43,784 nt of DNA. Source: a virus (Duplodnaviria; Heunggongvirae; Uroviricota; Caudoviricetes). Shown piece after piece: positions 5,522 through 36,195 of the stretch (position 1 is the stretch's first letter; each line of letters begins with the position of its first letter). Where the stretch lies: the IMG/VR virus record IMGVR_UViG_3300042946_001496; one strand, 5' to 3'. The notes below the pieces were generated by a model. The model searched no databases. It was given only the letters and a program-made list of their open reading frames with translations, and was not told the origin of the DNA. Made by a program: the position numbers and the translations under genes.

Positions 5522-5642
5522 GTGGGAGTTCAACCCCGTGGTAATCGGTCCTAACAGACCAAGCAATACCACAAACTTGAACTGTGCCTAGATCTTGTTC
5601 CTCCGTGGGACTTTAGGCGAGAAAAAACGGAGGCTAATTTTT
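5522..5642 (+). ncRNA. Candidate structured RNA with 3' H-type pseudoknot
   Basis: AGTTCAA/TTGAACT, GTGGTA/TACCAC, GGTC/GACC; interleaved GCCTAG(5586)/TTAGGC(5613) and CCTCCGT(5600)/ACGGAGG(5627); T-tract follows. Confidence 0.55.
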
Positions 5643-5723
5643 TTTTCTTAACAGTTCGGTTTGGTGGTACGCTGTGGTGGTGTAAGGCAACGAACGATAA
5701 AACCTCCAATAAGGAACGATAAC

Positions 5724-5981
5724 ATGGGTCGCCCATCTGGTAAGAATGCGGTTTCGATGAAGACTTTCCTTGGTAAGGTCGTTGAGGCTTACCACAATGG
5801 TCACAATCAGTCGTGGATTGCGGCTGAGTTGGGGGTGAGTGCAGCCGCAGTTAGTCTGCGGATCAGTTCCCTTCGTAAGAAGGGAGTTAAGCTCCCGGAG
5901 TTGGTGAGCGGTAGGGGTTCGGTTAACACCGTTGAGGATGCGAATAACATCCTCGCTGATCTCGGTTTTGACGCTGAGTGA
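5724..5981 (+). CDS. Winged-HTH protein, paralog 3
   Basis: ATG 5724 after AAGGAA; near-identical to paralog 2 from MKTFLGK onward. Confidence 0.88.
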   Translation: MGRPSGKNAVSMKTFLGKVVEAYHNGHNQSWIAAELGVSAAAVSLRISSLRKKGVKLPELVSGRGSVNTVEDANNILADLGFDAE

Positions 5982-6194
5982 GCTTAGCGTTAAGCCAACT
6001 GGTAAGGGGGAGGTAAAACTCCCCCTTACCTTTTTTTATACCTACTATCCTTAACTTAACTAAAACTTAACTAACTAAACTTAATTTATTTAACTAAAGA
6101 TTGCTTTGGTGGTACGCTGTTAATATATTATCAACCAATATATTAACACCTAAAATATATTATTGAAAATCATTTCTGGTGGTACGCTGGGAAG

Positions 6195-6362
6195 GTGTCG
6201 AGGACCGACGTCATTCATTTCTTTGAGTGCGATCGGCAAGATACAGCGGCTGGTTCGCTGGTATATTAGAAAAAGTCTATTTAATTAAAAGAACGAAGAA
6301 TAGTAGATAAAAGTAGATAAATGGGTAAGGGAGACTATAGGATGCTGTAGTCTCCCTTACTT
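6195..6362 (+). ncRNA. Candidate sRNA family A, copy 1
   Basis: ORF-less cassette; GTGTCGAG..TTGAGTG..CGGCAAGAT..CAGCGG-CTGGT-TCGCTG; long terminator TAAGGGAGACTATAG/CTGTAGTCTCCCTTA. Confidence 0.6.
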
Positions 6363-6443
6363 TTTTACTTAACACCGATCTGGTGGTACGCTGGGGGTGT
6401 GTAAGGCAACGAACAGTAAACCCCAAAATCAAGGAACATTAAC

Positions 6444-6692
6444 ATGGCTGGTCGCTCTAGTGTCGATATGAAGACTTTCCTCAGCAAGGTTGTTGAGGCT
6501 TACCACAACGGTCACAATCAATCGTGGATTGCGGCTGAGTTGGGTGTCTCCCCTGCCGCTGTTAGCCTGCGGCTTAGTGGACTGCGTAAGAAGGGTGTTA
6601 GGGTGCCGGAGTTGGTGAGCGGTAGGGGTGGAAGTAACACCGTTGAGGATGCGAATAACATCCTCGCTGATCTTGGTTTTGACGCTGAGTGA
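6444..6692 (+). CDS. Winged-HTH protein, paralog 4
   Basis: NQSWIAAELGVSPAAVSLRLSGLRKKG; AAGGAA upstream. Confidence 0.88.
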   Translation: MAGRSSVDMKTFLSKVVEAYHNGHNQSWIAAELGVSPAAVSLRLSGLRKKGVRVPELVSGRGGSNTVEDANNILADLGFDAE

Positions 6693-6901
6693 GCTTAGCG
6701 TTAAGCCAACTGGTAAGGGGGAGGTAACACTCCCCCTTACCTTTTTTTTTAACATACTAACAATTAAAATAAACATAAAATCGTACCTTGGTAGTACGCT
6801 GGACTGAAAAATAACTAACACCTATTAATTTATTAATAAAGTCCAGTTCTGGTGGTACGCTATGGGGGTGTTCTTTAATTTAGCCTCACTGGAGCCTAGT
6901 C

Positions 6902-7099
6902 ATGGCGAAGAAAGTAAGCTTGGCTGAAATGAATCGGATCATCCACGAGCGGGGATTCTTGAAGCCTGAAGAGCGGCTTTTCACAAAGCCTTGTTGTCAT
7001 TGTGGAAACTACGTGAGAGAGCGGGAGGCTCTTTGTCCAACGTGTGTCAAAGAGATCGAAAACGATCAATTCGATGATGAATTGCAAATTCAAGATTGA
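6902..7099 (+). CDS. Small zinc-ribbon protein
   Basis: CCHC...CPTC; GGAG upstream; own promoter and terminator. Confidence 0.75.
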   Translation: MAKKVSLAEMNRIIHERGFLKPEERLFTKPCCHCGNYVREREALCPTCVKEIENDQFDDELQIQD

Positions 7100-7168
7100 A
7101 CTAAGGGGGGAAGTTACTAACCCCCTTAACTTTTTTACTTAACAGCGTTTTGGTGGTACGCTGGTAGG

Positions 7169-7316
7169 GTGTCGAGCAGCAACATCTCACTTTGAGTGGG
7201 GCGGCAAGATCCAGCGGCTGGTTCGCTGGTTATATATAAGGAAAAAATTAAGTAAAAAGTAAATAGTAGATAAATGGGTAAGGGAGACTATAGGACGCTG
7301 TAGTCTCCCTTACTTT
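7169..7316 (+). ncRNA. Candidate sRNA family A, copy 2
   Basis: Same ordered motifs and same long terminator as copy 1. Confidence 0.6.
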
Positions 7317-7354
7317 TTTACTTAACACCTGTTCTGGTGGTACGCTGTGGAGCT

Positions 7355-7491
7355 GTCAACAGTAGTCGTCGCCACTGCCTGAGTTGGAATCGCTAACCAA
7401 ACGTAAGCAGCGTGGACGGCTTCCACATTACACACATTAGCGACCGTAGTGTGCGACTATAGAGCCGGATCGTAAATGGCTCGCTGTTGAC
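7355..7491 (+). ncRNA. Candidate multi-stem RNA with kissing-loop pseudoknot
   Basis: Ends pair (GTCAACAG/CTGTTGAC); TAGTCG/CGACTA; CTGC/GCAG; TTGG/CCAA; CACAC/GTGTG; GAGCC/GGCTC; loop TCGCTAA complementary to loop TTAGCGA. Confidence 0.65.
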
Positions 7492-7564
7492 TTTTTAACT
7501 AACAACAGTTTGGTGGTACGCTAGGAAGGTGTTCGATAGGCTTCTACCTTTCAAGGAGTTAAAC

Positions 7565-7690
7565 ATGGGTTTCACCATGATCATTGGATGGAATATGCCT
7601 GACGGTAGCAGCGAGGCTGCCTACATTGATGGCATTATGAAACAAATCGAGCAGCAAAGACGAAAGCGTAAAAAGCGTCGTAAAAAGTAA
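7565..7690 (+). CDS. 41-aa peptide with very basic C-terminus
   Basis: Read by hand: MGFTMIIGWNMPDGSSEAAYIDGIMKQIEQQRRKRKKRRKK*; AAGGAG upstream; fills one cassette. Confidence 0.7.
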   Translation: MGFTMIIGWNMPDGSSEAAYIDGIMKQIEQQRRKRKKRRKK

Positions 7691-7803
7691 AACTAAAGGG
7701 GGAAGTTACTAACCCCTTAACTTTTTAACTAACAACCAGTTTGGTGGTACGCTATGGTGGCGTAAGGTAACGAACAACAACCCTCCAATTAAGGAACAGC
7801 AAC

Positions 7804-8052
7804 ATGGCTGGTCGCTCTAGTGTCGATATGCGTGTTTTTCTCGCCAAGGTCGTCGAAGCCCATAAGAAGGGCATGAATCAATCGTGGATCGCCAATGAAC
7901 TTGGCGTGACTCCTGCCGCTGTTAGCCTGCGGCTTAGTGGACTGCGTAAGAAGGGTGTTAGGGTGCCGGAGTTGGTTTCTGGTCGAGGCGGTAGTAATAC
8001 CGCTGAAGACGCAAATAACATTCTGGCTGATCTCGGTTTTGACACCGAGTGA
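7804..8052 (+). CDS. Winged-HTH protein, paralog 5
   Basis: NQSWIANELGVTPAAVSLRLSGLRKKG. Confidence 0.88.
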   Translation: MAGRSSVDMRVFLAKVVEAHKKGMNQSWIANELGVTPAAVSLRLSGLRKKGVRVPELVSGRGGSNTAEDANNILADLGFDTE

Positions 8053-8141
8053 ATGCCAGATTAAAAAGTAAGTTAAGGGGGGACTAACACTCCCCCCTTA
8101 ACTCTTTTACTAACAATAAACTCTGGTGGTACGCTGATGAA

Positions 8142-8245
8142 TTGTCCGCAGCGGCTGGTCTGCTGTTAAAAGAATTATTTAAATATTTCAAAATGTATTA
8201 ATAATTCTGGACAGGTTAAAGGGGGAGGTTACTAACCCCTTAACT
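8142..8245 (+). ncRNA. Candidate sRNA family A, copy 3 (short form)
   Basis: TGTCC(8143)/GGACA(8209) enclosing CAGCGG-CTGGT-CTGCTG and AGAATTATT/AATAATTCT. Confidence 0.5.
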
Positions 8246-8336
8246 CTTTTACTAACAATAAACTCTGGTGGTACGCTGTGGTGTTGTAAGTGAACGATTG
8301 ATTAGGCTTCCCGTTCACCTTCTTTAAGGATAACAA

Positions 8337-8474
8337 ATGTATGAAATAACTAGCGTTGACACTGGTAAAACCATTGTCATGACTCGGAGCGAGGCTGAAC
8401 AAATGTTCGGCAAAAATGAGTTTAAAGAGATGCTGGCGGGAAGTTTACCGCACCTAATAGTAGTTAAACTCTGA
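8337..8474 (+). CDS. 45-aa hypothetical protein
   Basis: Read by hand: MYEITSVDTGKTIVMTRSEAEQMFGKNEFKEMLAGSLPHLIVVKL*; AAGGA upstream. Confidence 0.7.
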   Translation: MYEITSVDTGKTIVMTRSEAEQMFGKNEFKEMLAGSLPHLIVVKL

Positions 8475-8573
8475 GGTTATTAAGGGGGACTAACCGTCCC
8501 TCTTAACTCTTTAACTTAACACACGGTTTGGTGGTACGCTGTTTGTGTGCCGGACCTTAAAAAGAGGATTAAG

Positions 8574-8843
8574 ATGATTTTCACCGCACAACAAGCTAGG
8601 GATAATAGCATTCTTAAAGCCACCTTGGATAAGATTTACGAAAAGATCAAAATCGTCAGCAAAGACAAAAATGATCTTACTATTGTTTTTGGTGAAAATC
8701 CCGATTTTGAATACTGTGATGCTTATCGCAATGAAGAAGACATCAAAGAAAATCTTGAAAAGGCTGGCTATGAGGTTCGTTGGGATTACACCACTCCCCT
8801 CGGCATCCCTACACTCTATATCGATTGGCGTTTTCCTAACTAA
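8574..8843 (+). CDS. Hypothetical protein
   Basis: ATG 8574 after AGAGGA, in frame with track ORF 8547..8843. Confidence 0.75.
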   Translation: MIFTAQQARDNSILKATLDKIYEKIKIVSKDKNDLTIVFGENPDFEYCDAYRNEEDIKENLEKAGYEVRWDYTTPLGIPTLYIDWRFPN

Positions 8844-8938
8844 AGAAGGGGATTAAATATCCCTAACTTTATACTTAACGACCTGTTGGTGGTACGCTGT
8901 GGTGGTGTAAGTTAAACCCTCAAACAAGAAAGAATATC

Positions 8939-9172
8939 ATGAATAACGACTGCTGTTGGCACTCCAGCTGGAAGAAGAACCACCCGGAACCCGTTGCCGC
9001 CCCTTGCGTTTATGATCTTGATTTCATTTTCAAGGCGATGGCTAACAAAACAAAGATTACAATTCAAGGGGTCACCGGAATTATCAGTGGTATCGAAACA
9101 ACGAGTGCGGACAATGGATACAGATTGAGTTTCTGCGATAGAGCCGGTTGGGTTGTAGTCGTTGCAAAGTAA
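8939..9172 (+). CDS. Hypothetical protein, 'YDLDFIF' paralog 1
   Basis: Shares YDLDFIF(K/N)AMA...G.I(S/T)GIE with 11576..11893. Confidence 0.75.
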   Translation: MNNDCCWHSSWKKNHPEPVAAPCVYDLDFIFKAMANKTKITIQGVTGIISGIETTSADNGYRLSFCDRAGWVVVVAK

Positions 9173-9263
9173 ACAGCTAAAGGGGGAAGTTACTAACCCC
9201 TTAACTTTCTTCTTGCAACAAGTTTGGTGGTACGCTATAGTGGTGTAACCCCGGAGAAAAGAT

Positions 9264-9530
9264 ATGAATGACATTCGTAGAGGCAGGGTTGTTACTGAAG
9301 AGTATCTTCAGTACGTTGATAGCATAGTCAATCAAGACAATAGTCTTGAAGACTTGGTGTCAGAAGTTATTTGCGGCAATCCTACAGACGTTGCCGCAAA
9401 GATTATCATTCAGTCTATGCGAAGGCTAGCAGAACTGGAACGTCCACGAAACCCGCTCGGAAGAACTGCTACATTTGAACAAAATGCCAATAGGGCAATT
9501 GACGAAACTTGCGAAAAGCATTTTGGGTGA
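9264..9530 (+). CDS. Hypothetical protein
   Basis: GGAG upstream; fills one cassette. Confidence 0.75.
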   Translation: MNDIRRGRVVTEEYLQYVDSIVNQDNSLEDLVSEVICGNPTDVAAKIIIQSMRRLAELERPRNPLGRTATFEQNANRAIDETCEKHFG

Positions 9531-9603
9531 AACTAAAGGGGGAAGTTACTAACCCCTTAAGTTTTTACTAACAAATAAGTTGGTGGTACGCTGGATGACT
9601 ATC

Positions 9604-9828
9604 ATGGAAATCAAACCCATCAACGACAATAACAGTCAATTTGACTTGGTAGAGTTGCGGTCAAGTCACTATTCGGCACCACAGCAAACTCCTCACTGTA
9701 AGATTCATGGAGCTATGAACTGTGTGGCTGTTCATGCTACAGGGAAATTGTGGCGTTGCATACAGAGTAATCAATTAAAGGATTGTCGGGCTGGGTGTGA
9801 GGAGTTAATAACAACACAGAACAAATGA
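9604..9828 (+). CDS. Cys/His-rich hypothetical protein, probably near-leaderless
   Basis: ATG 9604 lies 11 nt after the -10 hexamer at 9587-9592; CKIHGAMNC...WRC...CRAGC. Confidence 0.65.
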   Translation: MEIKPINDNNSQFDLVELRSSHYSAPQQTPHCKIHGAMNCVAVHATGKLWRCIQSNQLKDCRAGCEELITTQNK

Positions 9829-9881
9829 AGGGCTAACCCCTAGTTTTTAACTAACACCAAGTTTGGTGGTACGCTGTGGGG

Positions 9882-10170
9882 GTGTTCGATAAGTGTTCCT
9901 AAACCACAAATGTTTAGGGGTGTCAAAGGCAAAACCTTTGCAGTAGAAGCGGCTTGTTAGGTCGTGGATGTAAAGAGAAAACTTTGGCTTGAACCGGTAA
10001 TTCCCTGTAAGAATGGGTTAATCACCGGCAACCCCGGAGTAAGATAGCGGGGTTTTCTAAGTAAGAAGAAGGCAAGAGTAGTCGCAAAGGCGTACTCGTA
10101 GCCGATGGCGGGCAAGATCAGCACCTTTTGCTTCAATGCGGGTGTCGTCACGTTCGATTCGTGATAATCT
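9882..10170 (+). ncRNA. Candidate structured RNA of about 290 nt ending in a T-loop hairpin
   Basis: No credible ORF; successive hairpins CCTAAAC/GTTTAGG, AAAGG/CCTTT, CCGGT/ACCGG, AACCCCG/CGGGGTT, GAGTA/TACTC, GCACC/GGTGT; TCACG-TTCGATT-CGTGA at 10148-10164. Confidence 0.6.
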
Positions 10171-10229
10171 TACTTACAATACATTTGTGGTACGCTCTGC
10201 CAGTGTAAGCCACACACAAAGGAGAAGCC

Positions 10230-10562
10230 ATGAGCTACGAAGGCGTTGAAGAGTTCATTTGTAATAAGGGTCATTACTGGACTCTGGATGCCGGTGTCCT
10301 CCATTACGACTTCCTTGATAACATGAGGATAATGGAAAAGGTTGCTTGTCCGCATTGTAAGGAAACCCCAGCCTACACTTGTAGTGTTGATGAAACCAAT
10401 GGTTACGATCCTAACCTTCCATGTACCTTTCATGGACCGAAAATTGAAATCGGTTATGAGGATATTGAGATGCAGGATCACCACGGAAATAAATACTTCG
10501 TTAAGTTGGAACGATACAAACCGGACAATTCCACAAATCGGTGGAGAAAAGAAGGGGACTAA
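10230..10562 (+). CDS. Cys/His-containing hypothetical protein
   Basis: AAGGAG upstream; CNKGH, CPHC. Confidence 0.75.
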   Translation: MSYEGVEEFICNKGHYWTLDAGVLHYDFLDNMRIMEKVACPHCKETPAYTCSVDETNGYDPNLPCTFHGPKIEIGYEDIEMQDHHGNKYFVKLERYKPDNSTNRWRKEGD

Positions 10563-10657
10563 ACATCCCCTTACTTTTTAACTTAACAACCAGTTTGGTG
10601 GTACGCTGTGGTGGCGTAAGGAACGATAAACAACAACCTCCAATAAGGAACGATAAC

Positions 10658-10948
10658 ATGGGTCGCCCCTCTGGCAAAGATGCAATTTCGATGCAGACGT
10701 TTCTTGGTAAAGTGGTGGAAGCGTATCGCAACCACCACAATCAATCGTGGATCGCACGGGAGTTGGGTATCACTCCTGCCGCTGTTAGCCTGCGGCTTAG
10801 TGGGTTGCGTAAGAAGGGCGTGAAGGTGCCGGAACTGGTTTCTGGTCGAGGTGGAAGTAACACCGTTGAGGATGCGAATAACATCCTCGCTGATCTTGGG
10901 TTCGATGGCAACGATGAAGCGGATCATTATGCTGGTCCGATCGGGTGA
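10658..10948 (+). CDS. Winged-HTH protein, paralog 6
   Basis: ATG 10658; NQSWIARELGITPAAVSLRLSGLRKKG; C-terminal extension. Confidence 0.88.
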   Translation: MGRPSGKDAISMQTFLGKVVEAYRNHHNQSWIARELGITPAAVSLRLSGLRKKGVKVPELVSGRGGSNTVEDANNILADLGFDGNDEADHYAGPIG

Positions 10949-11046
10949 GTAAAATGGGGGGAGGTTACTAACCCCCGTTTTTTACTTTGATACGCTGTTA
11001 GTGGTACGCTAGCATGGTGTGAGAACCACCTTCAAGGAGGAACGGT

Positions 11047-11133
11047 ATGCAAGTCAACATGACATTCGTGGAACAGATAGTCTGCCTTGTTGCTCTGATA
11101 GCCGGGATTGTGTTTGCTGCGTTGTTTGGTTGA
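11047..11133 (+). CDS. 28-aa hydrophobic single-helix peptide
   Basis: Read by hand: MQVNMTFVEQIVCLVALIAGIVFAALFG*; AAGGAGG upstream; fills one cassette. Confidence 0.7.
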   Translation: MQVNMTFVEQIVCLVALIAGIVFAALFG

Positions 11134-11232
11134 AAAATAGGGGGGGAGGTTACTAACCCCTTTAACTAACACTTTGAGTTGGTGGTACGCTATGGTGGCG
11201 TAAGTGACAATCAACCCTTCAAGGAGTTCAAG

Positions 11233-11472
11233 ATGAAGACTCGCAAGACTGTCAACCTTGTCAAGTTCATGCAGACCATCGTCAAGGCTGCTGCAAACGG
11301 TCACAACCAGAGCGACGTTGCTCGTTCGCTGGGGGTTACTCCCGCCGCTGTTACCTTGCGGCTTCAGAGTCTCCGCAAGAAGGGCGTTAAGGTTCCTAAC
11401 ATCAATGCCAATGCCGGTTGGGTTGATTGCAAGATGACTGCTAGTGAGCGGCTGGCTGCTGCCTACCGTTGA
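11233..11472 (+). CDS. Winged-HTH protein, paralog 7
   Basis: ATG 11233 after AAGGAG; NQSDVARSLGVTPAAVTLRLQSLRKKG. Confidence 0.85.
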   Translation: MKTRKTVNLVKFMQTIVKAAANGHNQSDVARSLGVTPAAVTLRLQSLRKKGVKVPNINANAGWVDCKMTASERLAAAYR

Positions 11473-11575
11473 GTTAAGGTTAAGGGGGGAGGTTACTAAC
11501 CCCCTGTTCATTTAACCAAGAGTGGTTTGGTGGTACGCTGTGGTGGTGTAAGCCTCCAACAACATAAGGTGTGAA

Positions 11576-11893
11576 ATGACTGACGATGCCATCGGATTTA
11601 ACGGACGTCACAGCGTTGCGGTTCCTTGCGTTACGGAGCGTGTCGGCGTAGGTCTCACCCAAGGCGACCCGTTCGATGAGGAGGAAACGAGGATCTACGA
11701 TCTTGACTTCATCTTCAACGCAATGGCTAAGTCGTTGGACGTGGTTGTTGGTATGAAAAGGGGGAACATTACAGGCATCGAAAAGTTGGGGGGCGATGAA
11801 TATCGTCTTTGCCTTCAATGGCACGATAAACGTTTTTCTTACGGTTCCGATGCTCGTGATTATGCAACCATCACCGCAAGGCAACTAAAGTGA
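11576..11893 (+). CDS. Hypothetical protein, 'YDLDFIF' paralog 2
   Basis: Similarity to 8939..9172. Confidence 0.75.
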   Translation: MTDDAIGFNGRHSVAVPCVTERVGVGLTQGDPFDEEETRIYDLDFIFNAMAKSLDVVVGMKRGNITGIEKLGGDEYRLCLQWHDKRFSYGSDARDYATITARQLK

Positions 11894-11994
11894 AGTTAAA
11901 GGGGGGACTAAAAATCCCTCCTTAACTCTTTTACTTAACAACAAGTTTGGTGGTACGCTGTGAGGGTGTAAGACCTTAAATAAAGGAGACAGCA

Positions 11995-12210
11995 ATGCGA
12001 ATGTCCTTCAAGAGTCTTGAGTCGTTCGCTCGTGAGCGTGGCTACACTGTTGAGCGGAGGGGCAGGATGATTGAGTGGTGTCGCAATGAGGATCACTCAA
12101 TGATCGGTGTAGTATACAGTGTTCACGAAGCCTACAGCGAGATCAAACAGGATTGGGATAGATGGATAGTAAGGATCCACAACCATATACTCCACGGCAC
12201 GACCGGCTAG
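11995..12210 (+). CDS. Hypothetical protein
   Basis: AAGGAG upstream; last ORF-bearing cassette. Confidence 0.72.
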   Translation: MRMSFKSLESFARERGYTVERRGRMIEWCRNEDHSMIGVVYSVHEAYSEIKQDWDRWIVRIHNHILHGTTG

Positions 12211-12629
12211 TATCCATCTATTCATAACAAAGGGGGAAGTTACTAACCCCCTGTTCATTTAACACAAGGATAGTTTGGTGGTACGCTATAGAGTTGCAAC
12301 AAAGCCTTTAACAAAAAGATTTAACAAAATTAAAAATTAAAAAAATAATGTAAAAAAACTATAAAAAAAATAGTAGTAGGGGAGGGGGTTCCACCGCCAT
12401 TACACTCTTTTTCTTTTGTTCTTTTCGTTTTTTTCTGTAGGGTTTTAGATTTTTCAAAATTAAAAGCCCAACAACTTTATAAAAATCCCCATAACCTTAA
12501 AATATTAAAAAACCATTTTAGAAAAAAATGCGGCGGAAAAAATTTTCAATATACAGTAGGGTTTTTAAATAAAAAAGACTTTGGAAAAATCCAAAGTCTT
12601 TTAAAGGAGAAAAAACAAAAGAAAAGATT

Positions 12630-13191: not shown

Positions 13192-13280
13192 GCAAGGGGT
13201 GGCAAGGGGTGGCAAGGGGTGGCAAGGGGTGGCAAGGGGTGGCAAGGGGTGGCAAGGGGTGGCAAGGGGTGGCAAGGGGG
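13192..13280. repeat. Tandem 10-bp repeat (GGCAAGGGGT), 9 copies
   Basis: Directly visible; nine GGGG runs on one strand. Confidence 0.95.
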
Positions 13281-13320: not shown

Positions 13321-13349
13321 TTGACTTCCAGACCATGGTTTTATATGAT
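13321..13349 (+). promoter_or_regulatory. Sigma70-type promoter
   Basis: TTGACT-N17-TATGAT upstream of ATG 13396. Confidence 0.6.
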
Positions 13350-13395
13350 CTGTGCATCGGACGAGAAAAAGAATTTTAAAAAGAAAGGATTCTCT

Positions 13396-15126
13396 ATGGG
13401 AACAGAAATTCACAGAATAAGACAGCAGGAGTTTAATTTCCCTTTTGTCAACGACAATATAAAAGATAAAGGGGCAAAAGTTATAAGAGAGCAGACAAAA
13501 AATGCCCTAGAGCATAATGGTCGTTGTGCTTACGTCGTTCCAGCTTTAATACCCGGTGACGAAAACACCTATTTGCTGTGGGCTAGCGATGCTGATAAGT
13601 TCGATGATGTGGAAAGTCAAAAGAAAGCACATTTTCTTGGTCAAAGTTTAAGGCAAAACAATATTGCGAGTGGAGTTCAAGGATCGGGAATACCTTCATC
13701 AATGATAATGCTAGCTCGCGATAAGGGCGAGTGCATGATATGCAGTATTGATGGCAACAAAGGATTTGTTACAAAAAGCTACATACAAGAAGGTGTTGGG
13801 GCTGAAGCTGGCACATATGCTCAGCGTGTAGAAGAAGTAACATCGGTCTCTGTTCCAAATTGCAATTTTACATATCTTGAACTTTTCAAAAAGTTTATTG
13901 GAAAGCCTGACTTTAATAAAGAAGAAAACGAAATAAATGTTTTGTTTTTATATAAAGTCATCAGAACTCCAAATGACGCAATATCTCTTAGTGGCTATAA
14001 AGACAAAATTATTACTTGCGGAACAATAAATACGTTTCATGAAATTTGTGAACCTGGTCTAGGTTTAGATGAAAGATTTAAACTATATTACTCGGTCACT
14101 AATCAAGGTGTTGGAGAATATATTATAAATGAAACAGAAAATTCTCCAGAAACAGTTCAATTTGTTGCACTATCTGACCATTGGTGTCCTGGCAGGAACA
14201 CAAACAAGATTAACATTGGAATAACACAAGAAAAGTACTTTTCTGAGTTTGGTAGAGACAAAATAGACTGTAGGGATTTTGATGTTGTGTATGAATATAA
14301 AGATACTTTTGATTCAAACATCAAAATTCATTGTTCAGTTGATTTGCAAATCCAGATGTATCCAGGCTTTTTAAGAACTACAGCGAGAGGTCAAGGCATT
14401 TCTAGACTTTGCAAGCTGAAGGACGGTCATGCTTCTCACAATTCAATGGAAAGCACCGAAAGGTTATTTCTATCTTACAAATTTCTTGAGAAAACTTTTT
14501 CTGGTTCTTCTGCAGAAAGAGCTTTTAAAGATCCTGTATTATGGTTTAACAATAGCAGAATTAATTCTTTCACAAGTATTCTTGGTCTAAACTGTAATGT
14601 TAACGTTTCTAATCCTTTTAAAGATCATGAATCTTGGAAAGAAGAATATACTTGGATATACGATAAGATAGAGGAAGAGAGTATAAAAGGAAGATCTCCT
14701 TTTGTAAAGTTTTTTATTGATATCAAAGACATTATTAAAATAGAAAGAAATGGCGAAGAAATTAAAAATCAAAATATTTTTAATTTCTTGGGATCTTATG
14801 ATGCATTTTTTTCAATGACAAGTGAGGAATCAGTAAGAACTAATTCGACTTTAATAAAAGTTGTTTTGGAAGCTTTTTCAAAGCAAAAAGAATTTAGTGA
14901 TTTCGTTGAGCTTCATAAGAAATATTTCCCCTATGATAAGAGTGATGAAATAAAAGGAGATTTAATCAAGACTTCTATTTCTAAAACACGATCAAGGGTG
15001 GACGTTTGGATTGAGGAATCCCTTTCAAATGCTTCGAAGCCCGCCAAGCCCGCTCCTGGGGTTGGGGCTAGTGGTAGTAACTCTGGTGAAGTATCAAACA
15101 AAAGAAAGAAGAAAGAAAAGGTTTAA
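13396..15126 (+). CDS. Large protein with putative N-terminal GHKL (Hsp90/MORC-like) ATPase domain
   Basis: ATG 13396 after AAAGGA; REQTKNALEH (N-box-like), SGVQGSGI (G2-box-like); G1 box DxGxG not evident. Confidence 0.5.
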   Translation: MGTEIHRIRQQEFNFPFVNDNIKDKGAKVIREQTKNALEHNGRCAYVVPALIPGDENTYLLWASDADKFDDVESQKKAHFLGQSLRQNNIASGVQGSGIPSSMIMLARDKGECMICSIDGNKGFVTKSYIQEGVGAEAGTYAQRVEEVTSVSVPNCNFTYLELFKKFIGKPDFNKEENEINVLFLYKVIRTPNDAISLSGYKDKIITCGTINTFHEICEPGLGLDERFKLYYSVTNQGVGEYIINETENSPETVQFVALSDHWCPGRNTNKINIGITQEKYFSEFGRDKIDCRDFDVVYEYKDTFDSNIKIHCSVDLQIQMYPGFLRTTARGQGISRLCKLKDGHASHNSMESTERLFLSYKFLEKTFSGSSAERAFKDPVLWFNNSRINSFTSILGLNCNVNVSNPFKDHESWKEEYTWIYDKIEEESIKGRSPFVKFFIDIKDIIKIERNGEEIKNQNIFNFLGSYDAFFSMTSEESVRTNSTLIKVVLEAFSKQKEFSDFVELHKKYFPYDKSDEIKGDLIKTSISKTRSRVDVWIEESLSNASKPAKPAPGVGASGSNSGEVSNKRKKKEKV

Positions 15127-17810: not shown

Positions 17811-18014
17811 ATGAACAATATATTTAATTTTAAAAAAAAATATCGTTGGGCTTTAGAAGGAACTTTTCCTAATGGTGATTTAAAGCCTATTTTTGTAAAA
17901 ATTTATTCTGATCCTGAAGTGGAAAATTATTTTACTGTGTGTATTCATGAGGATGGATGTGATCCACCAATTGCTAAAAAACTTGGACCTATGTTTGTTG
18001 TGAAAACACCTTAA
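17811..18014 (+). CDS. Truncated duplicate of the 18421 gene 5' end (possible pseudogene)
   Basis: PIFVKIYSDPEVENYFTVCIHE identical, also at DNA level, to 18421..19260. Confidence 0.55.
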   Translation: MNNIFNFKKKYRWALEGTFPNGDLKPIFVKIYSDPEVENYFTVCIHEDGCDPPIAKKLGPMFVVKTP

Positions 18015-18420: not shown

Positions 18421-19260
18421 ATGAAAAAAAAATATCGATGGTCTTTGGAAGGTACTTTTCCCAATAGTCTAGGACCTATTTTTGTAAAAATTTATTCTGA
18501 TCCTGAAGTGGAAAATTATTTTACTGTGTGTATTCATGAGATCGATACAGTAAAATTTAATGAGATTTCTAATCTTGTTCAAACAGGTGAGTTTAAATTA
18601 ACAAAATATGATGGTATTGGCAATATAGTAGAAGAACATATTTTAAAAGAAGCTTCTATAGAAAAAATAGACTTTTATGATTATTCCGAAGACCCAGGGA
18701 CTGATTATTTTGATGTTGTAATGAAAATTAAGTATCGTAGTTTGCATATTAATATTCACAAAGAAGAATTTTCAGACAAAATTCGTCCTTTTCTACAAAA
18801 TTTAAACAGATCAGAAGGTTTATTAAAATTTCATGATGATCATATTGATCTGATAATGTCCGCCAAAGGATCGAGTTATAATCATCAAACATGGATTGGT
18901 GGTTATCATGATCACCTTGTTCATTGCTTTGTTTTAGGGCAAAACTTATATAAGTTCTTTAAAGATAATAATGTATCTTTAGAATTTAGCTTTGAAAGCG
19001 TTGTAGTAGTTGTTTATTTTCACGATATAGAGAAAATATTTAAGTATAACAACAAGACACCGGAACCTACTGAAGTTTTACTTGAACGATATCATATAGT
19101 TCTTGATGATCAAGAGAAAAACGCTCTTAAATACGCTCATGGAGAAGGATCTGATTATTCTAAGGAAAAAAGAGTATCTTCTCAATTAGCAGGCTTTTTG
19201 CATTCAATAGACAATCTTTCAGCAAGAGTTCTTTACGACACAAAGGAATTAAATTCATGA
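18421..19260 (+). CDS. Fusion: degenerate gp19-like tail-tube domain plus HD-superfamily phosphohydrolase
   Basis: C-terminal HD motifs (GSSYNHQTWIGGYHDH, YFHDIEK, AHGEG, IDNLS); N-terminal LTKYDGIGNIVEEHILKEASIEKIDF resembles T4-like gp19 family. Confidence 0.6.
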   Translation: MKKKYRWSLEGTFPNSLGPIFVKIYSDPEVENYFTVCIHEIDTVKFNEISNLVQTGEFKLTKYDGIGNIVEEHILKEASIEKIDFYDYSEDPGTDYFDVVMKIKYRSLHINIHKEEFSDKIRPFLQNLNRSEGLLKFHDDHIDLIMSAKGSSYNHQTWIGGYHDHLVHCFVLGQNLYKFFKDNNVSLEFSFESVVVVVYFHDIEKIFKYNNKTPEPTEVLLERYHIVLDDQEKNALKYAHGEGSDYSKEKRVSSQLAGFLHSIDNLSARVLYDTKELNS

Positions 19261-19780: not shown

Positions 19781-20003
19781 TTTTAAAAATTGTTTGCATA
19801 AAATCAATAGCAATAATTTTGATTAAGTTACGATGTATAAAATAGTAGTATAAAATAAAATAAAATTTGAACTCTTCATGATTTATGTATTAAAAACTGT
19901 TAACTTTTAATTTGTATTCGAGAGAGAAAAAGTTCCGCCCGAAAATCTACTAATTTTAGAAAAAATCTACTATATTAGTATTAAGTAATAGGAGGTAGTA
20001 ATT

Positions 20004-21047
20004 ATGGAAGAGAATATGTTAAGTATTAGCGAAGCAGCAAAATTATTAGGTGTTTGTGAAAATACACTAAGAGATTGGGATATAGAAGGTAAATTTTTAG
20101 CATTTAGAACAGCAGGTAATCATAGACGTTATTCATTAGAACAAATAAGAGATTATCTTTCGAAAAATCCTCCTAAGCCTGAGCCAATGTCGATGGAGCG
20201 GCTTTCCCGCTCCTGCTCTCGACCTACTAGTCCAGAAAATTATAAAGGATATGAATATTGGAAAGAATTTGTTGAAGATATAAAAGATATTGATCAAAAA
20301 AAGATTATTTCAATTCTTTTATCAAATATATATGATTATCAAAATGTTGAATCTGTTTTCTCAACAAAACAAATGCTATGGCTTACAAAAGAATCTTGGT
20401 TGAGATCAAGATTTAAACATACAGTTTCAGTTCAACCAATGACAGGTCCTGCAAGTTTGATTTATTTTTGCAATATTTCTGACAAAACGCTTACAGTTTT
20501 AAATGAAGGTATAGCCGCTAAGACATTAGAACTAAATTTTAATTTATTTTCAAAAGTAAATTTTGATCAAATGAAAGAAGTTTATGCAGATGCTATAGCA
20601 TCAGAAATTGATTCTTATATTTTTAGTAATCTGTTGAATAAAATGAGTTTTGAACCTTGGATGGATGGGCTAGCAGGTCCAATGTCTGACGAAATGTTAG
20701 AAGAAATATTAAAATCTTATGATTATATAATAGGACCTGAAGATTTAATAAATAAGATTAAGAATAAGTTATGCATAAATGATGTTCATGATAATCTTAA
20801 ATATTATAAGTATATTGAATCTTTACAAAGACAGAAGTATATTGATCTATTTGTTATTCCCCCATATTTAGATCCTGATTCTTTTACTGTTAGCATTGCT
20901 GGTGGTAAGTATCCGACTTCGAATTTAACTTTGCCAATATTTGCTCCTTATATATTATTTATTACTGCTGGTGTGTTGGGGTCATCTTTCTACTCTGTTT
21001 TATCGAGATTAGGAAGTTTTACTGATTCTGATGTTAGGAAACGCTAA
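20004..21047 (+). CDS. MerR/excisionase-type HTH fused to degenerate T4 gp23-like major capsid domain
   Basis: LSISEAAKLLGVCENTLRDWDIEG...RTAGNHRRYS (HTH); VSVQPMTGPASLIYF (gp23 signature VQPMTGPTGLIF); FAPYI near C-terminus; GGAGG upstream. Confidence 0.7.
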   Translation: MEENMLSISEAAKLLGVCENTLRDWDIEGKFLAFRTAGNHRRYSLEQIRDYLSKNPPKPEPMSMERLSRSCSRPTSPENYKGYEYWKEFVEDIKDIDQKKIISILLSNIYDYQNVESVFSTKQMLWLTKESWLRSRFKHTVSVQPMTGPASLIYFCNISDKTLTVLNEGIAAKTLELNFNLFSKVNFDQMKEVYADAIASEIDSYIFSNLLNKMSFEPWMDGLAGPMSDEMLEEILKSYDYIIGPEDLINKIKNKLCINDVHDNLKYYKYIESLQRQKYIDLFVIPPYLDPDSFTVSIAGGKYPTSNLTLPIFAPYILFITAGVLGSSFYSVLSRLGSFTDSDVRKR

Positions 21048-21086: not shown

Positions 21087-21416
21087 ATGATTTACACATA
21101 TTTTAATGACGATGAGATTAAAGCTTTTGAAAAAGTAAGCGATAATTTTGTAAATGATTTATTTCAAGAAGTTAGAAGTTTAAATGAAAAGTATTATTTA
21201 GAAGAATACATTTTTGTAGAGAAAAAACTTTTTAAAAAAATTGAAAAGAAAGTTTATACATTATACTATAAGGTTAGTGCTTGTGAATATCAAATTGTCA
21301 ACTTTGCACCTGTACTTGAAAGTAGTATAAATATCAATGTAGACAAAGTTGCAATTTGTAGTTATTTAATTGGATTTTTAAATGGAGCAAGATTTCACAA
21401 GACTATGCAAATTTAA
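21087..21416 (+). CDS. Hypothetical protein
   Basis: ORF track. Confidence 0.7.
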   Translation: MIYTYFNDDEIKAFEKVSDNFVNDLFQEVRSLNEKYYLEEYIFVEKKLFKKIEKKVYTLYYKVSACEYQIVNFAPVLESSININVDKVAICSYLIGFLNGARFHKTMQI

Positions 21417-21417
21417 C

Positions 21418-21489
21418 GCCGATGTAGCACAACGGTAGTGCAATTGATTTGTAATCAATAGGTTGAAGGTTCGATTCCTTTCATCGGCT
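21418..21489 (+). tRNA. trnT: tRNA-Thr(TGT)
   Basis: GCCGATG/CATCGGC acceptor; ATTGA-TTTGTAA-TCAAT anticodon arm; TTCGATT T loop. Confidence 0.92.
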
Positions 21490-21513
21490 TTTGGAACTTT
21501 GGCAGGTAAATTT

Positions 21514-21600
21514 AGAAGTCAGGCAGATATTGGTTTGCTGCACCGCTTTGCTAAAGCGGACCGGGTAAAACCGGTAAGGGTTCAATTCCCTTGGCTTCTG
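21514..21600 (+). tRNA. trnS: tRNA-Ser(GCT)
   Basis: AGAAGTC/GGCTTCT acceptor; CCGCT-TTGCTAA-AGCGG; long variable arm ACCGG/CCGGT; AAGGG-TTCAATT-CCCTT; G discriminator. Confidence 0.92.
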
Positions 21601-21671
21601 TTTTGTAGATCAAAAAGATATAAAAACTTTTAATTTCTACTCTTAGAGAAAAAGTTCCGTCCCTAGTATTT

Positions 21672-26974: not shown

Positions 26975-28498
26975 TTACCTCGTTTCACTCCACTGTAGAC
27001 TTGCATAGACTAAGGCATTTACATTATTTGAGTTTCCTAAAACCGTAGCTATAATTCCATAGGCTTCGCTATTTGAAGAATCATAGTTCTGAGTTATAAA
27101 TCCTCTCTTGTTCACCACAGGATTAACAATAATACCAGAACCAGTAGTGTTTTTGCTTGCAGATGCTTCAACAAATTGACCGGAGACAGGATAACCATTA
27201 GAAAACCCAGTTGCAGTCTTGTTATATTCAACTATACTGTCTGAGCCTTTGTCCACCCATAGACCACCAGTTATAGAGCTATGGCTTTCAAATTTAACTA
27301 ACTCGAAATAAATGGGAGCATTAGTAACTAATATAGATGCTTGAAGAGATCTTACTATTCCTCTTACTAAGTCAGAGTTATATTCATTTTTTAACCTTAT
27401 TGCTAAAACACAAATTGAGTCTCCGCCATCAACTATGGTTCTTCCCGTTAAAGAGCTAGGCACTGTGTGGATAAGACCAGTTTCTAAGTATCCGCCTTCA
27501 CTCATAACAGTAGAACATATTTGTTTTAAAGTAGAAGTTCCTACTGCTGTGTCTGTATTTCTAATTTCACATCTTATTGGCAGGCTAGGTTGGGTCCAAT
27601 ATACATTTTCACCATAATTAGAATGATATATTTCGTGAGCTATTATCCACTCTCCTTCATGAACAAAGCCAATTCTTATTCTTCCAACACCGAGCCATTG
27701 AAAATCCAACATCAGCAATTGAGTTTTAGTTTGATCTAGTGTCCATGTTCCAGGATCTCCGTAATTTGGGGCATTGTCCCCATTAGGCATTACGCCCGTT
27801 CCATTTATTGTAATGTCGCAAGTATTTCTGTTCCAATCGGATTGGTTTATTATCAAATCGTTAGGACTACCTGTAACATAGTCTCTTATTACAAAACAAA
27901 GACTTCCATCTCCATTTTGTTGAACAAATATTCCATTTCTGTCGTCAAAGTAACCAACTCTTTTGACTGTGTTTTCTCTTGAATTTCCAAAAACAAAACT
28001 TGTCAATATTACCTGACTTTTTCCAGGTAGGTAATGATGATACATTCTGCTTTGATGTATTGCATAATCTGTTGAGCCTGTTCCAACTGATAGTATGTAG
28101 CTGCTTGTTTCTGCATTAGCCAATCCAGAGCCACTTCCACTAGTTTTTGTTATCATTTCTGGATTTTCTCCAGAAACATGATGATAATCTCCAAGGGTGG
28201 TTGGCATTGATACACGTAATTTACCAAAAGCATCAACACTTGCTGCAAGTGGCGTCTGAGAAACATAAAGAGGGTTGCTTTGGTCATTCTCTACAGTGAC
28301 CGATGTTCCGACATTTACATCCCCAGTAATTGTTATACTATCAGACCCTAGTGTTACTGGAAGTGGGTTTGTATTGCTGACCATCGTGGCACTGTCTGCT
28401 TCGCCAAATTCTAATTTAACTTTTAGGTGTTTTGTATCGCCTATTTCGTCGGCAGCAAATAGTTTTTCATGATCATGTATTCTTGCATTATCTGCCAT
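26975..28498 (-). CDS. Beta-rich putative virion structural protein
   Basis: DAFGKLRVS.P.TL and Y.PGKSQ motifs recalled from environmental phage proteins; AGAGG upstream. Confidence 0.6.
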   Translation of the reverse strand: MADNARIHDHEKLFAADEIGDTKHLKVKLEFGEADSATMVSNTNPLPVTLGSDSITITGDVNVGTSVTVENDQSNPLYVSQTPLAASVDAFGKLRVSMPTTLGDYHHVSGENPEMITKTSGSGSGLANAETSSYILSVGTGSTDYAIHQSRMYHHYLPGKSQVILTSFVFGNSRENTVKRVGYFDDRNGIFVQQNGDGSLCFVIRDYVTGSPNDLIINQSDWNRNTCDITINGTGVMPNGDNAPNYGDPGTWTLDQTKTQLLMLDFQWLGVGRIRIGFVHEGEWIIAHEIYHSNYGENVYWTQPSLPIRCEIRNTDTAVGTSTLKQICSTVMSEGGYLETGLIHTVPSSLTGRTIVDGGDSICVLAIRLKNEYNSDLVRGIVRSLQASILVTNAPIYFELVKFESHSSITGGLWVDKGSDSIVEYNKTATGFSNGYPVSGQFVEASASKNTTGSGIIVNPVVNKRGFITQNYDSSNSEAYGIIATVLGNSNNVNALVYASLQWSETR

Positions 28499-33321: not shown

Positions 33322-36195
33322 TTAAAAAAATTCTAAATAATCCTTAAAAGAATAACTTTCTTTCATTGCTTTGGCTGCAGCACCAGCAATTAAAGCTCTA
33401 ATTTCTTCATCTATTTCTTGCATCTTCTTTTGTGCATCAACAATTTTCTGAATTAATGATTCATCAACTTCTTTTTCTTGATATTCTTTTCTGTATTTTT
33501 GAATCATTTCTGCAAGTTTTCTTTTTCTTTGAACAACAGTAAACAACTCAGTATCTAGACCATCTGTTAATGTGTATGTTATATTAACAGGATGATTGGT
33601 GTTAATTCGATAAATTCTTCCTTCGCTTTGTTCTGCACTTTCTGGCGTCCAGTCAAAATCATTAATAATCATGTTTTGACTAGCGTTGGGGAAACTTATT
33701 CCTGTTCCACCCATTTTCATACTCATTACTAAAGCTTTTGTGTTTGGGTCATTTGTAAAAATATCCTTAACCTTTTCTCTTTCAGATTTTTTTGTCATAG
33801 AAAGATATGTCAAAACTTTAAAATTAGGGTCTATTTCTTTTAACTTACTTGAAAGTTTTTCATAAATATTTTTTCCAGGATTTGTAAAATTTGTAAAAAT
33901 TACAACCTTGCTGGCGGCATAATTATTTTCTGGTTTTTTTAAATTTTTCTTAACAATATCAACTGCTGTTTCTACTGTGTGATCTACTTTAAGATTGGCT
34001 AATATTTCTCTGCTAGCTATTAGCTCGCTTATCGCCAGATCAGGATCTTTGTAGCCTTTTAGTTTTTCTCTTAGATCTTTTTCAAATTTATCTTGATCTA
34101 TTGGGGTTGCAGATGTTCCTACGCTAAGATTTGGCATTTCTCTTAATTCGTCTTTTGTTCTTCTCACATACACACCAGAAAGATTTAGCCATTTATTCAA
34201 TTTTTCTGCTGCACGAATTCTATCTTCAAAAGTTCCTTCTGTATAGGATCCTCTATACCCACCAGGAACCATGCCTGCAAAATCTCTCTTAAATTTACTC
34301 TCAGATATTTTTCCAAGTGGATGCCCAACCATAACAAGTTGGTTTCTAACATCCATTGCTCTATTTGCACTTATTGTTGCACTTGCTCCCCACTTATAAG
34401 GGATATTATCTGTTGCATCTTCAAGATTTTGACTTCTTTTTGAAGTTGAGTGTTTTAGTTTATGCAATTCATCAAATATAACAACAGCATAGCCTGCATT
34501 TTTTGTAGTCTCTATAATTTTTTGTAAGTTTTTACCACTTGAAAAATTATCATAATAAAGAACGGTCCATTTTTTTGGGTCTAATCCATTTTCAGATATT
34601 TGAGCATTTGCTCCTATTACATTTTTTATTTCTTCAACCCATTGTTTTTGAACAGCCTTCAAAGTTAACACAAGTGTTTTTGAATTAGATCCAAGATCTT
34701 GCATCTTTAATTCAGCCGCAGCAATCGCAGTGATCGTTTTCCCGAAGCCCGTCTCGTCACCAAGTATTGCGTTGTTTCTTCCATGTAAAAATGCAATTCC
34801 ATCTTTTTGTTTATCATAAATTTCAAATTTACATTCAGGAAGTCTTTCATCAATTTTTTCTTTAAAATTTTCAGAAACCTTTCCTTCATAGTCTGTTCTG
34901 TCAAGACCACCACCGGCGAGTTTTTTAGTAACTATGGTTCTTAGGTCTTCAACGTGGTAGCCGAATTTTTTTAATATTTGTCCAAATGAAGCATATTGTT
35001 TAAAGTTGCCAGATACGATATATGCATAATTATTTCCATCCCATTCATAACCTGGGAATGAATACTGCACCAGTTCTTTTAAAAACGCTTTTTGATCTGG
35101 GGAGATCCTTGCATATGGTATATTCACTGTCATGGAGTTTTTGGTTCCATTGCTCGAATCACTAAATTTAATAATAGGTTTAGCTGAAACAACGCTCTCA
35201 GGTTTTTTCTCAAAACTTATTTCTTTTTGACTATCTGATGAGAATAGTTTGTTGTCTTCAACAAATTTATCTAAAACAGAAACATCTACTTTTCCATCAA
35301 TTAACTTTTGCTTAACAGTGTTATAAAGATCAAAACTATCTGCTGCTATTAAAAATTTAGGAGGTCTTCCAGCAACATAACCATACCCCCTAGGGACTAA
35401 GTTTGCTGCTTTCATGGAATCATAGATTGCTCTACTTTTGTCATAATCTACATTTAACTGTATAGCAATTTTTTTGCCTTGACTTGTTTCTTCAATTCCA
35501 ATAATGTTTATTTCTTGAGATGGAGCTGATTTTTGGCTTGATGATGATGAATCAGCAGTAGCAGAAGATGCTAAGGACGCACCAGAAACTCTATAGTCTA
35601 ATCTTGTCTCGTTTTTTATAAGACTTAAAACATCATCTATAACATCTTGATGAATATAATATGTATTTAATTGATTTTTATCTGTGTTAAAGTATTTAAA
35701 AACAGGATAATCCATTGCACCATAATTATTTTTAACTTTAACTAATCTCTTTTTTTCTATAATTAAATTTTTTATTTTCGTTACTATTTTTTTATCAATT
35801 CCACCTGGGACATATACTTTTATTTTTCCGTATTGTCTTGCTGCATCTGTGTGGACAACAATTTCTTTTGAATCTTCTATTTTTAATGAATCTTTTATAT
35901 CTTTTTCAACAAGTTCTTTTATTCGCTTATAATCTGTTATTTGTGTGTTTTGATATCTTGCCAAAATTGACAATATATTGTTAGCCATTACCACAGGAAT
36001 AGCTGATTCTGAATACTTTGGATCTGACGTTATTGTCAAATATGATTTATAATGAATTTTATTAAATCCAGTAAAATCATCTTGTACAGGAGCTCCTCTT
36101 TCAAACATATTTTCAAAAGTTCTTTTAAGAAGAGTTATTCCGGGACCAGAAACTAAATTTTCATTATTTTCAATGAGGAATTTTATTGATTTCAT
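33322..36195 (-). CDS. SWI2/SNF2-family helicase/ATPase with long N-terminal extension
   Basis: Likely start ATG 36195 (MKSIKFLIENNE); GDETGFGKT, VIFDELH, GASAT, RRTK, VVIFTNF, GGTGISF, EQSEGRIYRI. Confidence 0.9.
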   Translation of the reverse strand: MKSIKFLIENNENLVSGPGITLLKRTFENMFERGAPVQDDFTGFNKIHYKSYLTITSDPKYSESAIPVVMANNILSILARYQNTQITDYKRIKELVEKDIKDSLKIEDSKEIVVHTDAARQYGKIKVYVPGGIDKKIVTKIKNLIIEKKRLVKVKNNYGAMDYPVFKYFNTDKNQLNTYYIHQDVIDDVLSLIKNETRLDYRVSGASLASSATADSSSSSQKSAPSQEINIIGIEETSQGKKIAIQLNVDYDKSRAIYDSMKAANLVPRGYGYVAGRPPKFLIAADSFDLYNTVKQKLIDGKVDVSVLDKFVEDNKLFSSDSQKEISFEKKPESVVSAKPIIKFSDSSNGTKNSMTVNIPYARISPDQKAFLKELVQYSFPGYEWDGNNYAYIVSGNFKQYASFGQILKKFGYHVEDLRTIVTKKLAGGGLDRTDYEGKVSENFKEKIDERLPECKFEIYDKQKDGIAFLHGRNNAILGDETGFGKTITAIAAAELKMQDLGSNSKTLVLTLKAVQKQWVEEIKNVIGANAQISENGLDPKKWTVLYYDNFSSGKNLQKIIETTKNAGYAVVIFDELHKLKHSTSKRSQNLEDATDNIPYKWGASATISANRAMDVRNQLVMVGHPLGKISESKFKRDFAGMVPGGYRGSYTEGTFEDRIRAAEKLNKWLNLSGVYVRRTKDELREMPNLSVGTSATPIDQDKFEKDLREKLKGYKDPDLAISELIASREILANLKVDHTVETAVDIVKKNLKKPENNYAASKVVIFTNFTNPGKNIYEKLSSKLKEIDPNFKVLTYLSMTKKSEREKVKDIFTNDPNTKALVMSMKMGGTGISFPNASQNMIINDFDWTPESAEQSEGRIYRINTNHPVNITYTLTDGLDTELFTVVQRKRKLAEMIQKYRKEYQEKEVDESLIQKIVDAQKKMQEIDEEIRALIAGAAAKAMKESYSFKDYLEFF

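Follow-up and report, generated by a model that had tools for sequence, protein, structure and literature searches.

A MerR-like DNA-binding domain fused to a compact gp23/gp24-family capsid fold in large phages, and a candidate operator in front of its gene

Introduction

Proteins of the HK97 fold are known as the building material of virus shells and of encapsulin compartments. The stretch of DNA analyzed here, referred to throughout as the window (43,784 nucleotides, nt; IMG/VR record IMGVR_UViG_3300042946_001496), comes from a phage from lake water and harbors, at 20004..21047 on the + strand, a gene in which such a fold is attached to an N-terminal helix-turn-helix (HTH) domain. The encoded protein is composed of the HTH, a free linker, and a compact but complete HK97 fold that belongs to the gp23/gp24 family, and in related whole genomes that carry the fusion it is, as judged from sequence, a paralogue of a separate capsid protein. 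Two short direct repeats in front of the gene are likely to form its operator. Taking these features together, we favor, with a probability of around 40 %, the reading that the fusion is a capsid-derived accessory factor that acts off the virion, bound to DNA in the cytoplasm, and does not serve to build the head. Both parts are of known kinds, and their combination with a candidate operator of its own appears to be undescribed; full-text literature searches found no published account of an HTH-capsid-fold fusion with such a dedicated site.

Architecture of the fused gene and its product

The coding sequence is an intact open reading frame (ORF) with an ATG start that specifies a protein of 347 residues (P0001). 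It is preceded on the same strand by a ribosome-binding site, AGGAGG at 19990..19995, which ends 8 nt 5' of the start codon and is conserved in two related loci (L001 and L003). The N-terminal domain, a MerR-like HTH_17 DNA-binding domain of the type found in BldC and at the N-terminus of IS607 TnpA, occupies residues 5-55 (20016..20168, + strand). It is followed by a flexible linker of ~25 residues at positions 57-80 of the protein (20172..20243, +) and then by the HK97-fold domain, which extends over residues ~81-347 (20244..21044, +) and in which the N-arm helices, the E-loop hairpin (150-171), the spine helix (187-209), the A-domain and the P-domain strands can all be discerned. The motif VQPMTGP, at residues 143-149 (20430..20450, +), aligns with VQPMNSP of gp23, and the PY within IFAPYILF, at residues 315-316 (20946..20951, +), aligns with YAPYV of the same protein.

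A preliminary description of this DNA, made from the letters and translations alone, had recognized a MerR/excisionase-type HTH at about residues 5-52, joined in frame to a region with VQPMTGP and a C-terminal PY. The Pfam assignment and the positions given above bear this out. The stretch aligned to gp23 VQPMNSP is the most conserved stretch, and P149 is near-invariant across the 147 sequences of the family alignment described below. When the domains are compared one by one, the HTH is the best conserved, with 75-80 % identity between P0001 and its relatives P0009 or P0010, as against 37 % in the capsid domain and 12 % in the linker. The linker is indeed unconserved (identity 12-37 %, compared with 37-96 % in the flanking domains), and its predicted local distance difference test score (pLDDT) is only 55-60.

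Authenticity and distribution of the fusion

The two domains are found together in about 70 clusters at 50 % identity, which means that the family is not rare. Within a 90 %-clustered protein collection there are ten relatives, down to 39 % identity, eight of which are full-length and contain both domains; the other two (P0007 and P0011) are shorter and have no HTH. Moreover, contigs from four other lake-water sequencing runs span the junction between the HTH and the capsid fold, including one of 991 nt that covers 19936-20926 with no differences (X4) and two others that cover 19797-20320 (X7) and 20067-20402 (X8). The possibility that the fusion is a sequencing artefact, which the preliminary description had raised as a caution, is thus ruled out by the shared architecture and by independent contigs.

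The phages that harbor the family have sizes between about 140 kb and 572 kb, and the relatives P0005, P0009 and P0010 are encoded on contigs of 125-477 kb. No relative was found in prokaryotes in a pattern scan of 185,579 species genomes, nor was the fusion found in cultured phages, where tblastn searches with P0001, P0095 and P0142 returned nothing beyond matches to the HTH or a single 595-kb record from an uncultured phage. One relative is named in its source only as an 'excisionase family DNA binding protein', and for the others no source name is given. In a FastTree phylogeny of 130 capsid domains, the window protein belongs to a supported clade with 79 rows, of which 66 have the HTH. T4 gp23 and the capsid proteins of the megaphages fall in a different clade, and a further small clade of fused proteins lies elsewhere. 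As the tree has many open forks, it does not settle whether fusion occurred once or more often.

The capsid-fold domain

The relationship of the C-terminal domain to capsid proteins becomes visible at the level of the family. Direct searches with residues 60-347 gave no match in Pfam, PHROGs, PDB sequences or the PDB profile, and P0001 has no hit to the Gp23 family (PF07068) at E <= 1, so that the Pfam gathering score is not reached. Three related fused proteins do exceed the PF07068 cut-off of 24.4, namely P0095 (46.4 bits), P0120 (42.7 bits) and P0135 (41.4 bits), and these have the HTH match as well. A profile built solely from the C-terminal domains (A2; 249 positions, with exclusion of the HTH checked with hmmbuild) was run against 1.84 billion representatives and retrieved 147 clusters (50 % identity) at E <= 1e-3, with 79 of them at E <= 1e-30. 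In the corresponding alignment of 147 proteins (A4), nearly all of which are hits of this profile, a Pfam scan detected MerR/HTH_17 in 70 and Gp23 PF07068 in 52, the best at E 1.9e-64.

Comparison of the A2 profile with 17 canonical Gp23/gp24 proteins by hhalign gave a probability of 99.6 % (E 1e-23) over 239 columns, a span that takes in the N-arm, VQPM, the E-loop AKT.K, the spine helix, the A-domain, APY and R.G. The 17-sequence alignment is needed for this result, as single T4 gp23 or gp24 sequences produced only short local matches at 1-2 % probability. Two gaps separate the fusion from T4 gp23: the first falls where the propeptide ends and the mature chain begins, the second at the insertion domain (~110 residues; gp23 ~140-250).

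The predicted structure agrees with the alignment. With the 147 sequences as input, AlphaFold returned a model with a pLDDT of 90.8 and a predicted template modeling score of 0.88, in which the only weak stretches are linker residues 61-80 (block means 55-60, with residues 70-76 under 50) and a loop at ~261-280 (55-70); a run on the single sequence was uninformative (pLDDT 35). In a Foldseek search of the PDB, every top match of the model is a capsid protein of the HK97 fold, an encapsulin, or a cage made from such proteins. Among viral models, the second-best match is a head vertex protein of 297 residues from Vibrio phage nt-1 (BFVD R9TJ44, E 6.8e-7). An ESM Atlas search gave nothing above noise.

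By sequence comparison, then, the resemblance to capsid proteins is one of whole-domain homology to gp23/gp24 and not a chance motif. The domain is a complete, compact, gp24-like HK97 fold that is without only the propeptide and insertion domain of the T4 protein, and it is the loss of these two that makes it shorter than gp23. The preliminary description was therefore right to assign the region to the gp23 family and to call it shorter than a full gp23, the structural match extending far beyond the short motif; its term 'degenerate' has to be abandoned, since the fold is complete and all of its elements and the core motifs of the family are retained under strong conservation.

In comparison with T4 gp23 and gp24 (PF07068), the window protein differs in having no insertion domain or gp23-type propeptide and in carrying the N-terminal HTH, and its gene is neither part of a head gene cluster nor one of the core genes. 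The nt-1 vertex protein is similar in size and fold, but it has no HTH and shows no sequence similarity detectable by BLAST. Encapsulins differ in that the window protein has a gp23-type sequence signature and is phage-encoded, with no cargo gene present. Membership of the encapsulins was considered and rejected, as neither a cellular operon with cargo nor an encapsulin sequence family was found for this protein.

The helix-turn-helix domain

In Pfam, residues 5-55 match HTH_17 with 38.2 bits (E 1.8e-9; gathering cut-off 27) and MerR_1 with 30.8 bits (E 3.3e-7; gathering cut-off 21.6). Among solved structures, the BldC chains 6ama and 6amk are nearest to the domain in sequence. BldC is a 68-residue MerR-like protein of Streptomyces on which the HTH of the window protein can be superposed with a root mean square deviation of 1.2-2.4 Å at 31-34 % identity, and neither protein has the coiled coil of MerR. 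However, BldC is a stand-alone domain, whereas the HTH here is tethered to a capsid fold of 270 residues. BldC assembles into head-to-tail multimers on direct repeats (PMC5859096), and direct repeats are also found 5' of the window gene. Assignment as a classical MerR activator was rejected: the C-terminal coiled coil and effector domain are lacking, and the Pfam matches end at residue 55, after which the capsid fold follows.

The nearest sequence relatives of the domain are the N-terminal HTHs of IS607-family TnpA proteins, with 45-63 % identity, and the capsid fusion probably took its HTH from a gene for an IS607-type serine transposase. In TnpA the HTH is coupled to a serine-recombinase catalytic domain, and in the window protein to the capsid fold. 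Other marks of IS607 are missing: P0001 has no Resolvase match in Pfam, transposon ends and tnpB were not seen, and the YARVSS..QK motif of true TnpA genes bearing the same HTH is absent from the window protein. As a separate observation, the HTH subtype ..TLR.WD...GGHRRY heads IS607-type serine transposases of ~200 residues in many IMG/VR phage contigs (L008, L010-L019 and L021).

Direct repeats in front of the gene

The 75 nt immediately 5' of the gene are about 80-85 % identical among the window, L001 and L003, although the sequence farther upstream differs. Within this segment, TCTACTA occurs twice on the + strand, at 19946..19952, 58 nt before the start codon and at about the -35 position, and at 19966..19972, 38 nt before the start codon, where it overlaps a -10-like TATATT at 19971-19976. 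A repeat pair of this kind is found in six loci (the window, L001, L002, L003, L006 and L007) that belong to four lineages and reach down to 39 % protein identity. The upstream copy reads TCTACYA and the downstream copy [T/C][C/A]TACTA, and their starts are 19-21 bp, or two helical turns, apart. The distance to the start codon is equally fixed, with the downstream copy starting 37-38 nt and the upstream copy 57-59 nt before the ATG, always on the strand of the gene.

The pair has no further copy in the window or in these loci, with both strands considered. There is a single one in a complete 572-kb genome (G002) and a single one in a 299-kb record (G001), each before the fused gene, and none in a complete related genome without an HTH fusion (G003). 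A second fused gene in G002 is preceded by the half-site in the form of an inverted pair, CTTACTA N7 TAGTAGG. It is only the pair that is distinctive, for the single 10-mer AAATCTACTA, with one mismatch allowed, is not over-represented in the window (9 found, 7 expected). The T4 late-promoter sequence TATAAATA does not occur 5' of the fused gene. The transcription start is predicted to lie near 19983.

The TCTACYA repeats are thus a likely operator of the fusion gene, and the protein is a candidate for binding at its own promoter because the repeats lie over its -35 and -10 positions and because HTHs of the BldC type bind direct repeats. The predicted operator also makes the question directly testable in Escherichia coli, with no need for a phage culture.

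The presence of only one paired site per genome, adjoining the gene, could also be read in terms of a site-specific DNA anchor or a packaging-recognition factor, in which the HTH would read a unique site and the capsid-fold body would link that site to the head, in analogy to the small terminase subunits that recognize pac or cos sites. We consider such a role very unlikely. The HTH does have weak matches to small-terminase families (phrog_57 at E 0.017, phrog_141 at E 0.32, and PF10668 in one family member), but the site stands at the exact distance of a promoter from the start codon in all loci, for which autoregulation is a simpler explanation than packaging, the protein has no oligomerization domain of the terminase type, and the gene is missing from complete relatives that must still package their DNA. 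Identification of the protein as a small terminase subunit was itself rejected, since the terminase oligomerization core is absent, the C-terminal part is an HK97 fold, and the matches are weak and confined to the HTH.

A paralogue of the capsid protein with a patchy distribution

No second gp23-like gene was found within the window. At 43.8 kb, however, the window represents less than one third of a contig of ~141 kb, and the true capsid gene can therefore lie elsewhere on it. Among the IMG/VR loci with fused genes, those on the megaphage records G001 and G002 are informative in this respect, as each of these records also encodes a canonical Gp23 protein of 484-492 residues (E about 1e-84) beside a T4-type S77 prohead protease. 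The true gp23 that the preliminary description suggested should be located has consequently been found in these relatives but not inside the window. These findings leave it barely credible that the fusion is the real major capsid protein of the phage, with the HTH in place of the usual propeptide. The lack of another gp23-like gene in the window and a domain with the size of a minimal HK97 capsid protein would suit that proposal, but every whole or large genome with a fused gene has the canonical protein in addition.

The paralogues vary among the relatives. The second HTH-capsid-fold gene of G002 (L148:2995-3990, at about 463 kb in that genome) encodes 331 residues and is more degenerate, having lost VQPM. 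The related genome G003 has no fusion and instead contains a compact HTH-less paralogue of 312 residues (L025:1099-2037) that is 51 % identical to the G003 capsid protein over its C-terminal ~210 residues. This protein and a similar one in L002, both of which lack the HTH and the insertion, may serve megaphages as gp24-like vertex proteins. A further 11 related records with capsid proteins about 80 % identical, among them the complete 533-kb genome G008, have no fusion and no compact paralogue, so that in close relatives the gene is accessory, with a patchy distribution.

The preliminary description had named a DNA-tethering minor head protein as one of its three options, and a version of it is the principal alternative to an off-virion factor. 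The fusion would then be an autoregulated minor head subunit, most likely a gp24-like penton that is co-assembled at the vertices with the gp23-type capsid protein. The HTH would point inward and may contact the packaged DNA inside the head, while the HTH of unassembled subunits would repress the gene and so keep the subunit scarce relative to the thousands of copies of the capsid protein. We regard this as possible, if rather unlikely. It fits with the completeness of the HK97 fold, with conserved motifs in the E-loop, spine helix and P-domain, with the vertex protein of nt-1 as second-best viral model, and with the superposition of the AlphaFold model, in which helix 19-28 of the HTH coincides with the N-helix on the lumenal side of encapsulins. 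In G002, furthermore, the only gp23-family genes besides the capsid gene are the two HTH-fused ones, with no separate gp24-type gene found, and the close relative G003 has its compact paralogue instead.

On the other hand, the complete relative G008 manages with neither the fusion nor a compact paralogue, so that the protein appears dispensable for building such heads. T4 gp24 has been judged a recent and easily bypassed addition by Rao and Black (PMC3012670), and a patchy distribution is for that reason not fatal to a role at the vertices. The gene is also usually found beyond the head module, in a non-structural context and with its own promoter, and conservation is higher in the HTH than in the capsid domain, which is not expected of an appendage resembling a propeptide. 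Nor are T4-type (L/I)xE protease sites enriched in the linker, where they were observed in 32 of 76 cases against 32.8 expected. If the fusion does prove to be a head subunit, it would represent a shell protein with an inward DNA-binding domain and a feedback loop of its own.

A proposed off-virion, DNA-bound factor and its competitors

The genes that surround the fusion are mainly of other kinds. In the window it is the last gene of a + strand block located after an array of 29 early-type promoter-like units (+) at 1.9-12.3 kb, none of which is found at the fused gene itself. Its neighbors are two DNA methyltransferases and a DNA polymerase in G002, and an epimerase, a primase-like protein, a ligase and a helicase in L003; in L002 a homing-endonuclease gene lies immediately 5' of it. 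Together with the repeats, the conservation of the HTH and the patchy distribution, these non-structural neighborhoods make an oligomerizing DNA-binding regulator the best fit of the three options that the preliminary description had offered.

As a possible mechanism, the HK97 domain would form capsomer-like pentamers or hexamers that display several HTHs on one face, and these HTHs would attach to the two repeats in a head-to-tail arrangement, in the manner of BldC and excisionase-type HTHs. Through binding at its own repeats the fusion protein would repress its own promoter, and its level would be kept low and fixed as a result. If this is true, a capsid fold has been recruited into gene control. 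Regulators are already known among capsid-related proteins, such as the MS2 coat protein, which is a translational repressor, Psu of P4, and the autoregulated scaffold of P22. Like these, the window protein would be a capsid-related protein that also controls expression through a nucleic acid or a host factor; in contrast to them, where the protein uses its own surface or targets RNA or Rho, it has a separate, fused DNA-binding domain.

Several observations weigh against an off-virion factor. An HK97 fold of 270 residues that conserves the E-loop and all motifs exceeds what an oligomerization module would need, which points to real contacts with a capsid lattice, and vertex proteins, namely T4 gp24 and the 297-residue nt-1 protein, give the best structural matches. 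The second fused paralogue of G002 lies 6 kb from the capsid gene, and in L002 the fused gene is 1.2 kb from the compact HTH-less gp23-like gene (L002:3827-4612). With respect to the DNA, a simple sigma-70 scan called no promoter at the repeats, which could alternatively be the core of an unusual promoter and not an operator, and the sole paired site in each genome is the one before the fused gene, with no other target found.

The capsid fold might in addition do more than bring HTHs together. We think it improbable, but of interest, that it has become a transcription factor that senses head assembly or that, as a DNA-bound capsomer, shows host sensors a capsid look-alike. In the assembly-sensing form, free protein would sit on the operator until growing gp23 lattices or capsomer-like rings captured the HK97 domain and the DNA was released.

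Decidedly improbable is a role as a capsid mimic in conflict, an early-made decoy for gp23-sensing defenses, as the preliminary description had also proposed, or a poison of head assembly in competing related phages, with the HTH only setting the dose. The accessory, patchy occurrence of the gene among close relatives, its early or non-structural neighborhoods, the homing-endonuclease gene next to it in L002 and the strong conservation of the region aligned to gp23 VQPMNSP would all accord with this. That region of gp23 is part of the Gol segment that activates Lit. A copy of the triggering segment would, however, be expected to activate a sensor such as Lit and not to block it, and such a role leaves unexplained why conservation is highest in the HTH.

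Other features of the window

Genes with a recognizable product in the window include one for a virion structural protein (phrog_1645) at 26975-28498 and one for an SNF2 helicase at 33322-36276, both on the - strand. A collagen-like (Gly-X-Y) tail-fiber gene begins at 41446 and runs through 43784, continuing past the end of the window, and its repeat leaves all six frames open over 41780-43783.

The segment at 1900-12300 differs from the rest of the window in its guanine-plus-cytosine fraction (0.40-0.48, compared with about 0.30 elsewhere) and in an ORF density that is halved. It has 30 perfect copies of TGGTGGTACGCT, of which 29 lie on the + strand, and every copy is part of a 55-70 nt unit in which a GGGGGAAGTTACTAACCCC hairpin is followed by CTTAACTTTTTACTTAACA, a spacer and TTTGGTGGTACGCTG, and the units are spaced 140-1900 nt apart, 5' of small ORFs. 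The array looks like a set of small early transcription units with a common promoter and terminator; the repeat units have no match in Rfam. Two paralogous small proteins are encoded within it on the + strand, at 3184-3621 and 10541-10948, and have in common the segment GITPAAVSLR..LR..GVK. Copies of a 300-nt unit are located at 4420, 5757, 6468, 7828 and 10691.

Beyond the array, a 10-mer, GCAAGGGGTG, is repeated perfectly in tandem over 8.8 copies at 13192-13279, immediately 5' of an ORF of 601 residues at 13321-15126 that matches no family. Two ORFs on the + strand, one of 67 residues at 17811-18014 and one of 279 residues at 18421-19260, share a near-identical N-terminal module, KKKYRW.LEGTFPN...PIFVKIYSDPEVENYFTVCIHE, a local duplication that likewise has no family match. 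On the 3' side of the fused gene there is a small ORF of 109-110 residues in both the window (21087-21416, +) and L001 (2073-2405), which L003, L006 and L007 lack; in the window, this ORF matches no family.

Three transfer RNA (tRNA) genes are present, for Glu-TTC at 4093-4168, Thr-TGT at 21418-21489 and Ser-GCT at 21513-21601, of which only tRNA-Glu and tRNA-Thr are listed at the Rfam gathering threshold. The genes for tRNA-Thr and tRNA-Ser are situated immediately 3' of the small ORF that lies downstream of the fused gene, and tRNA-Thr is about 90 % identical to the tRNA-Thr of rV5-like coliphages.

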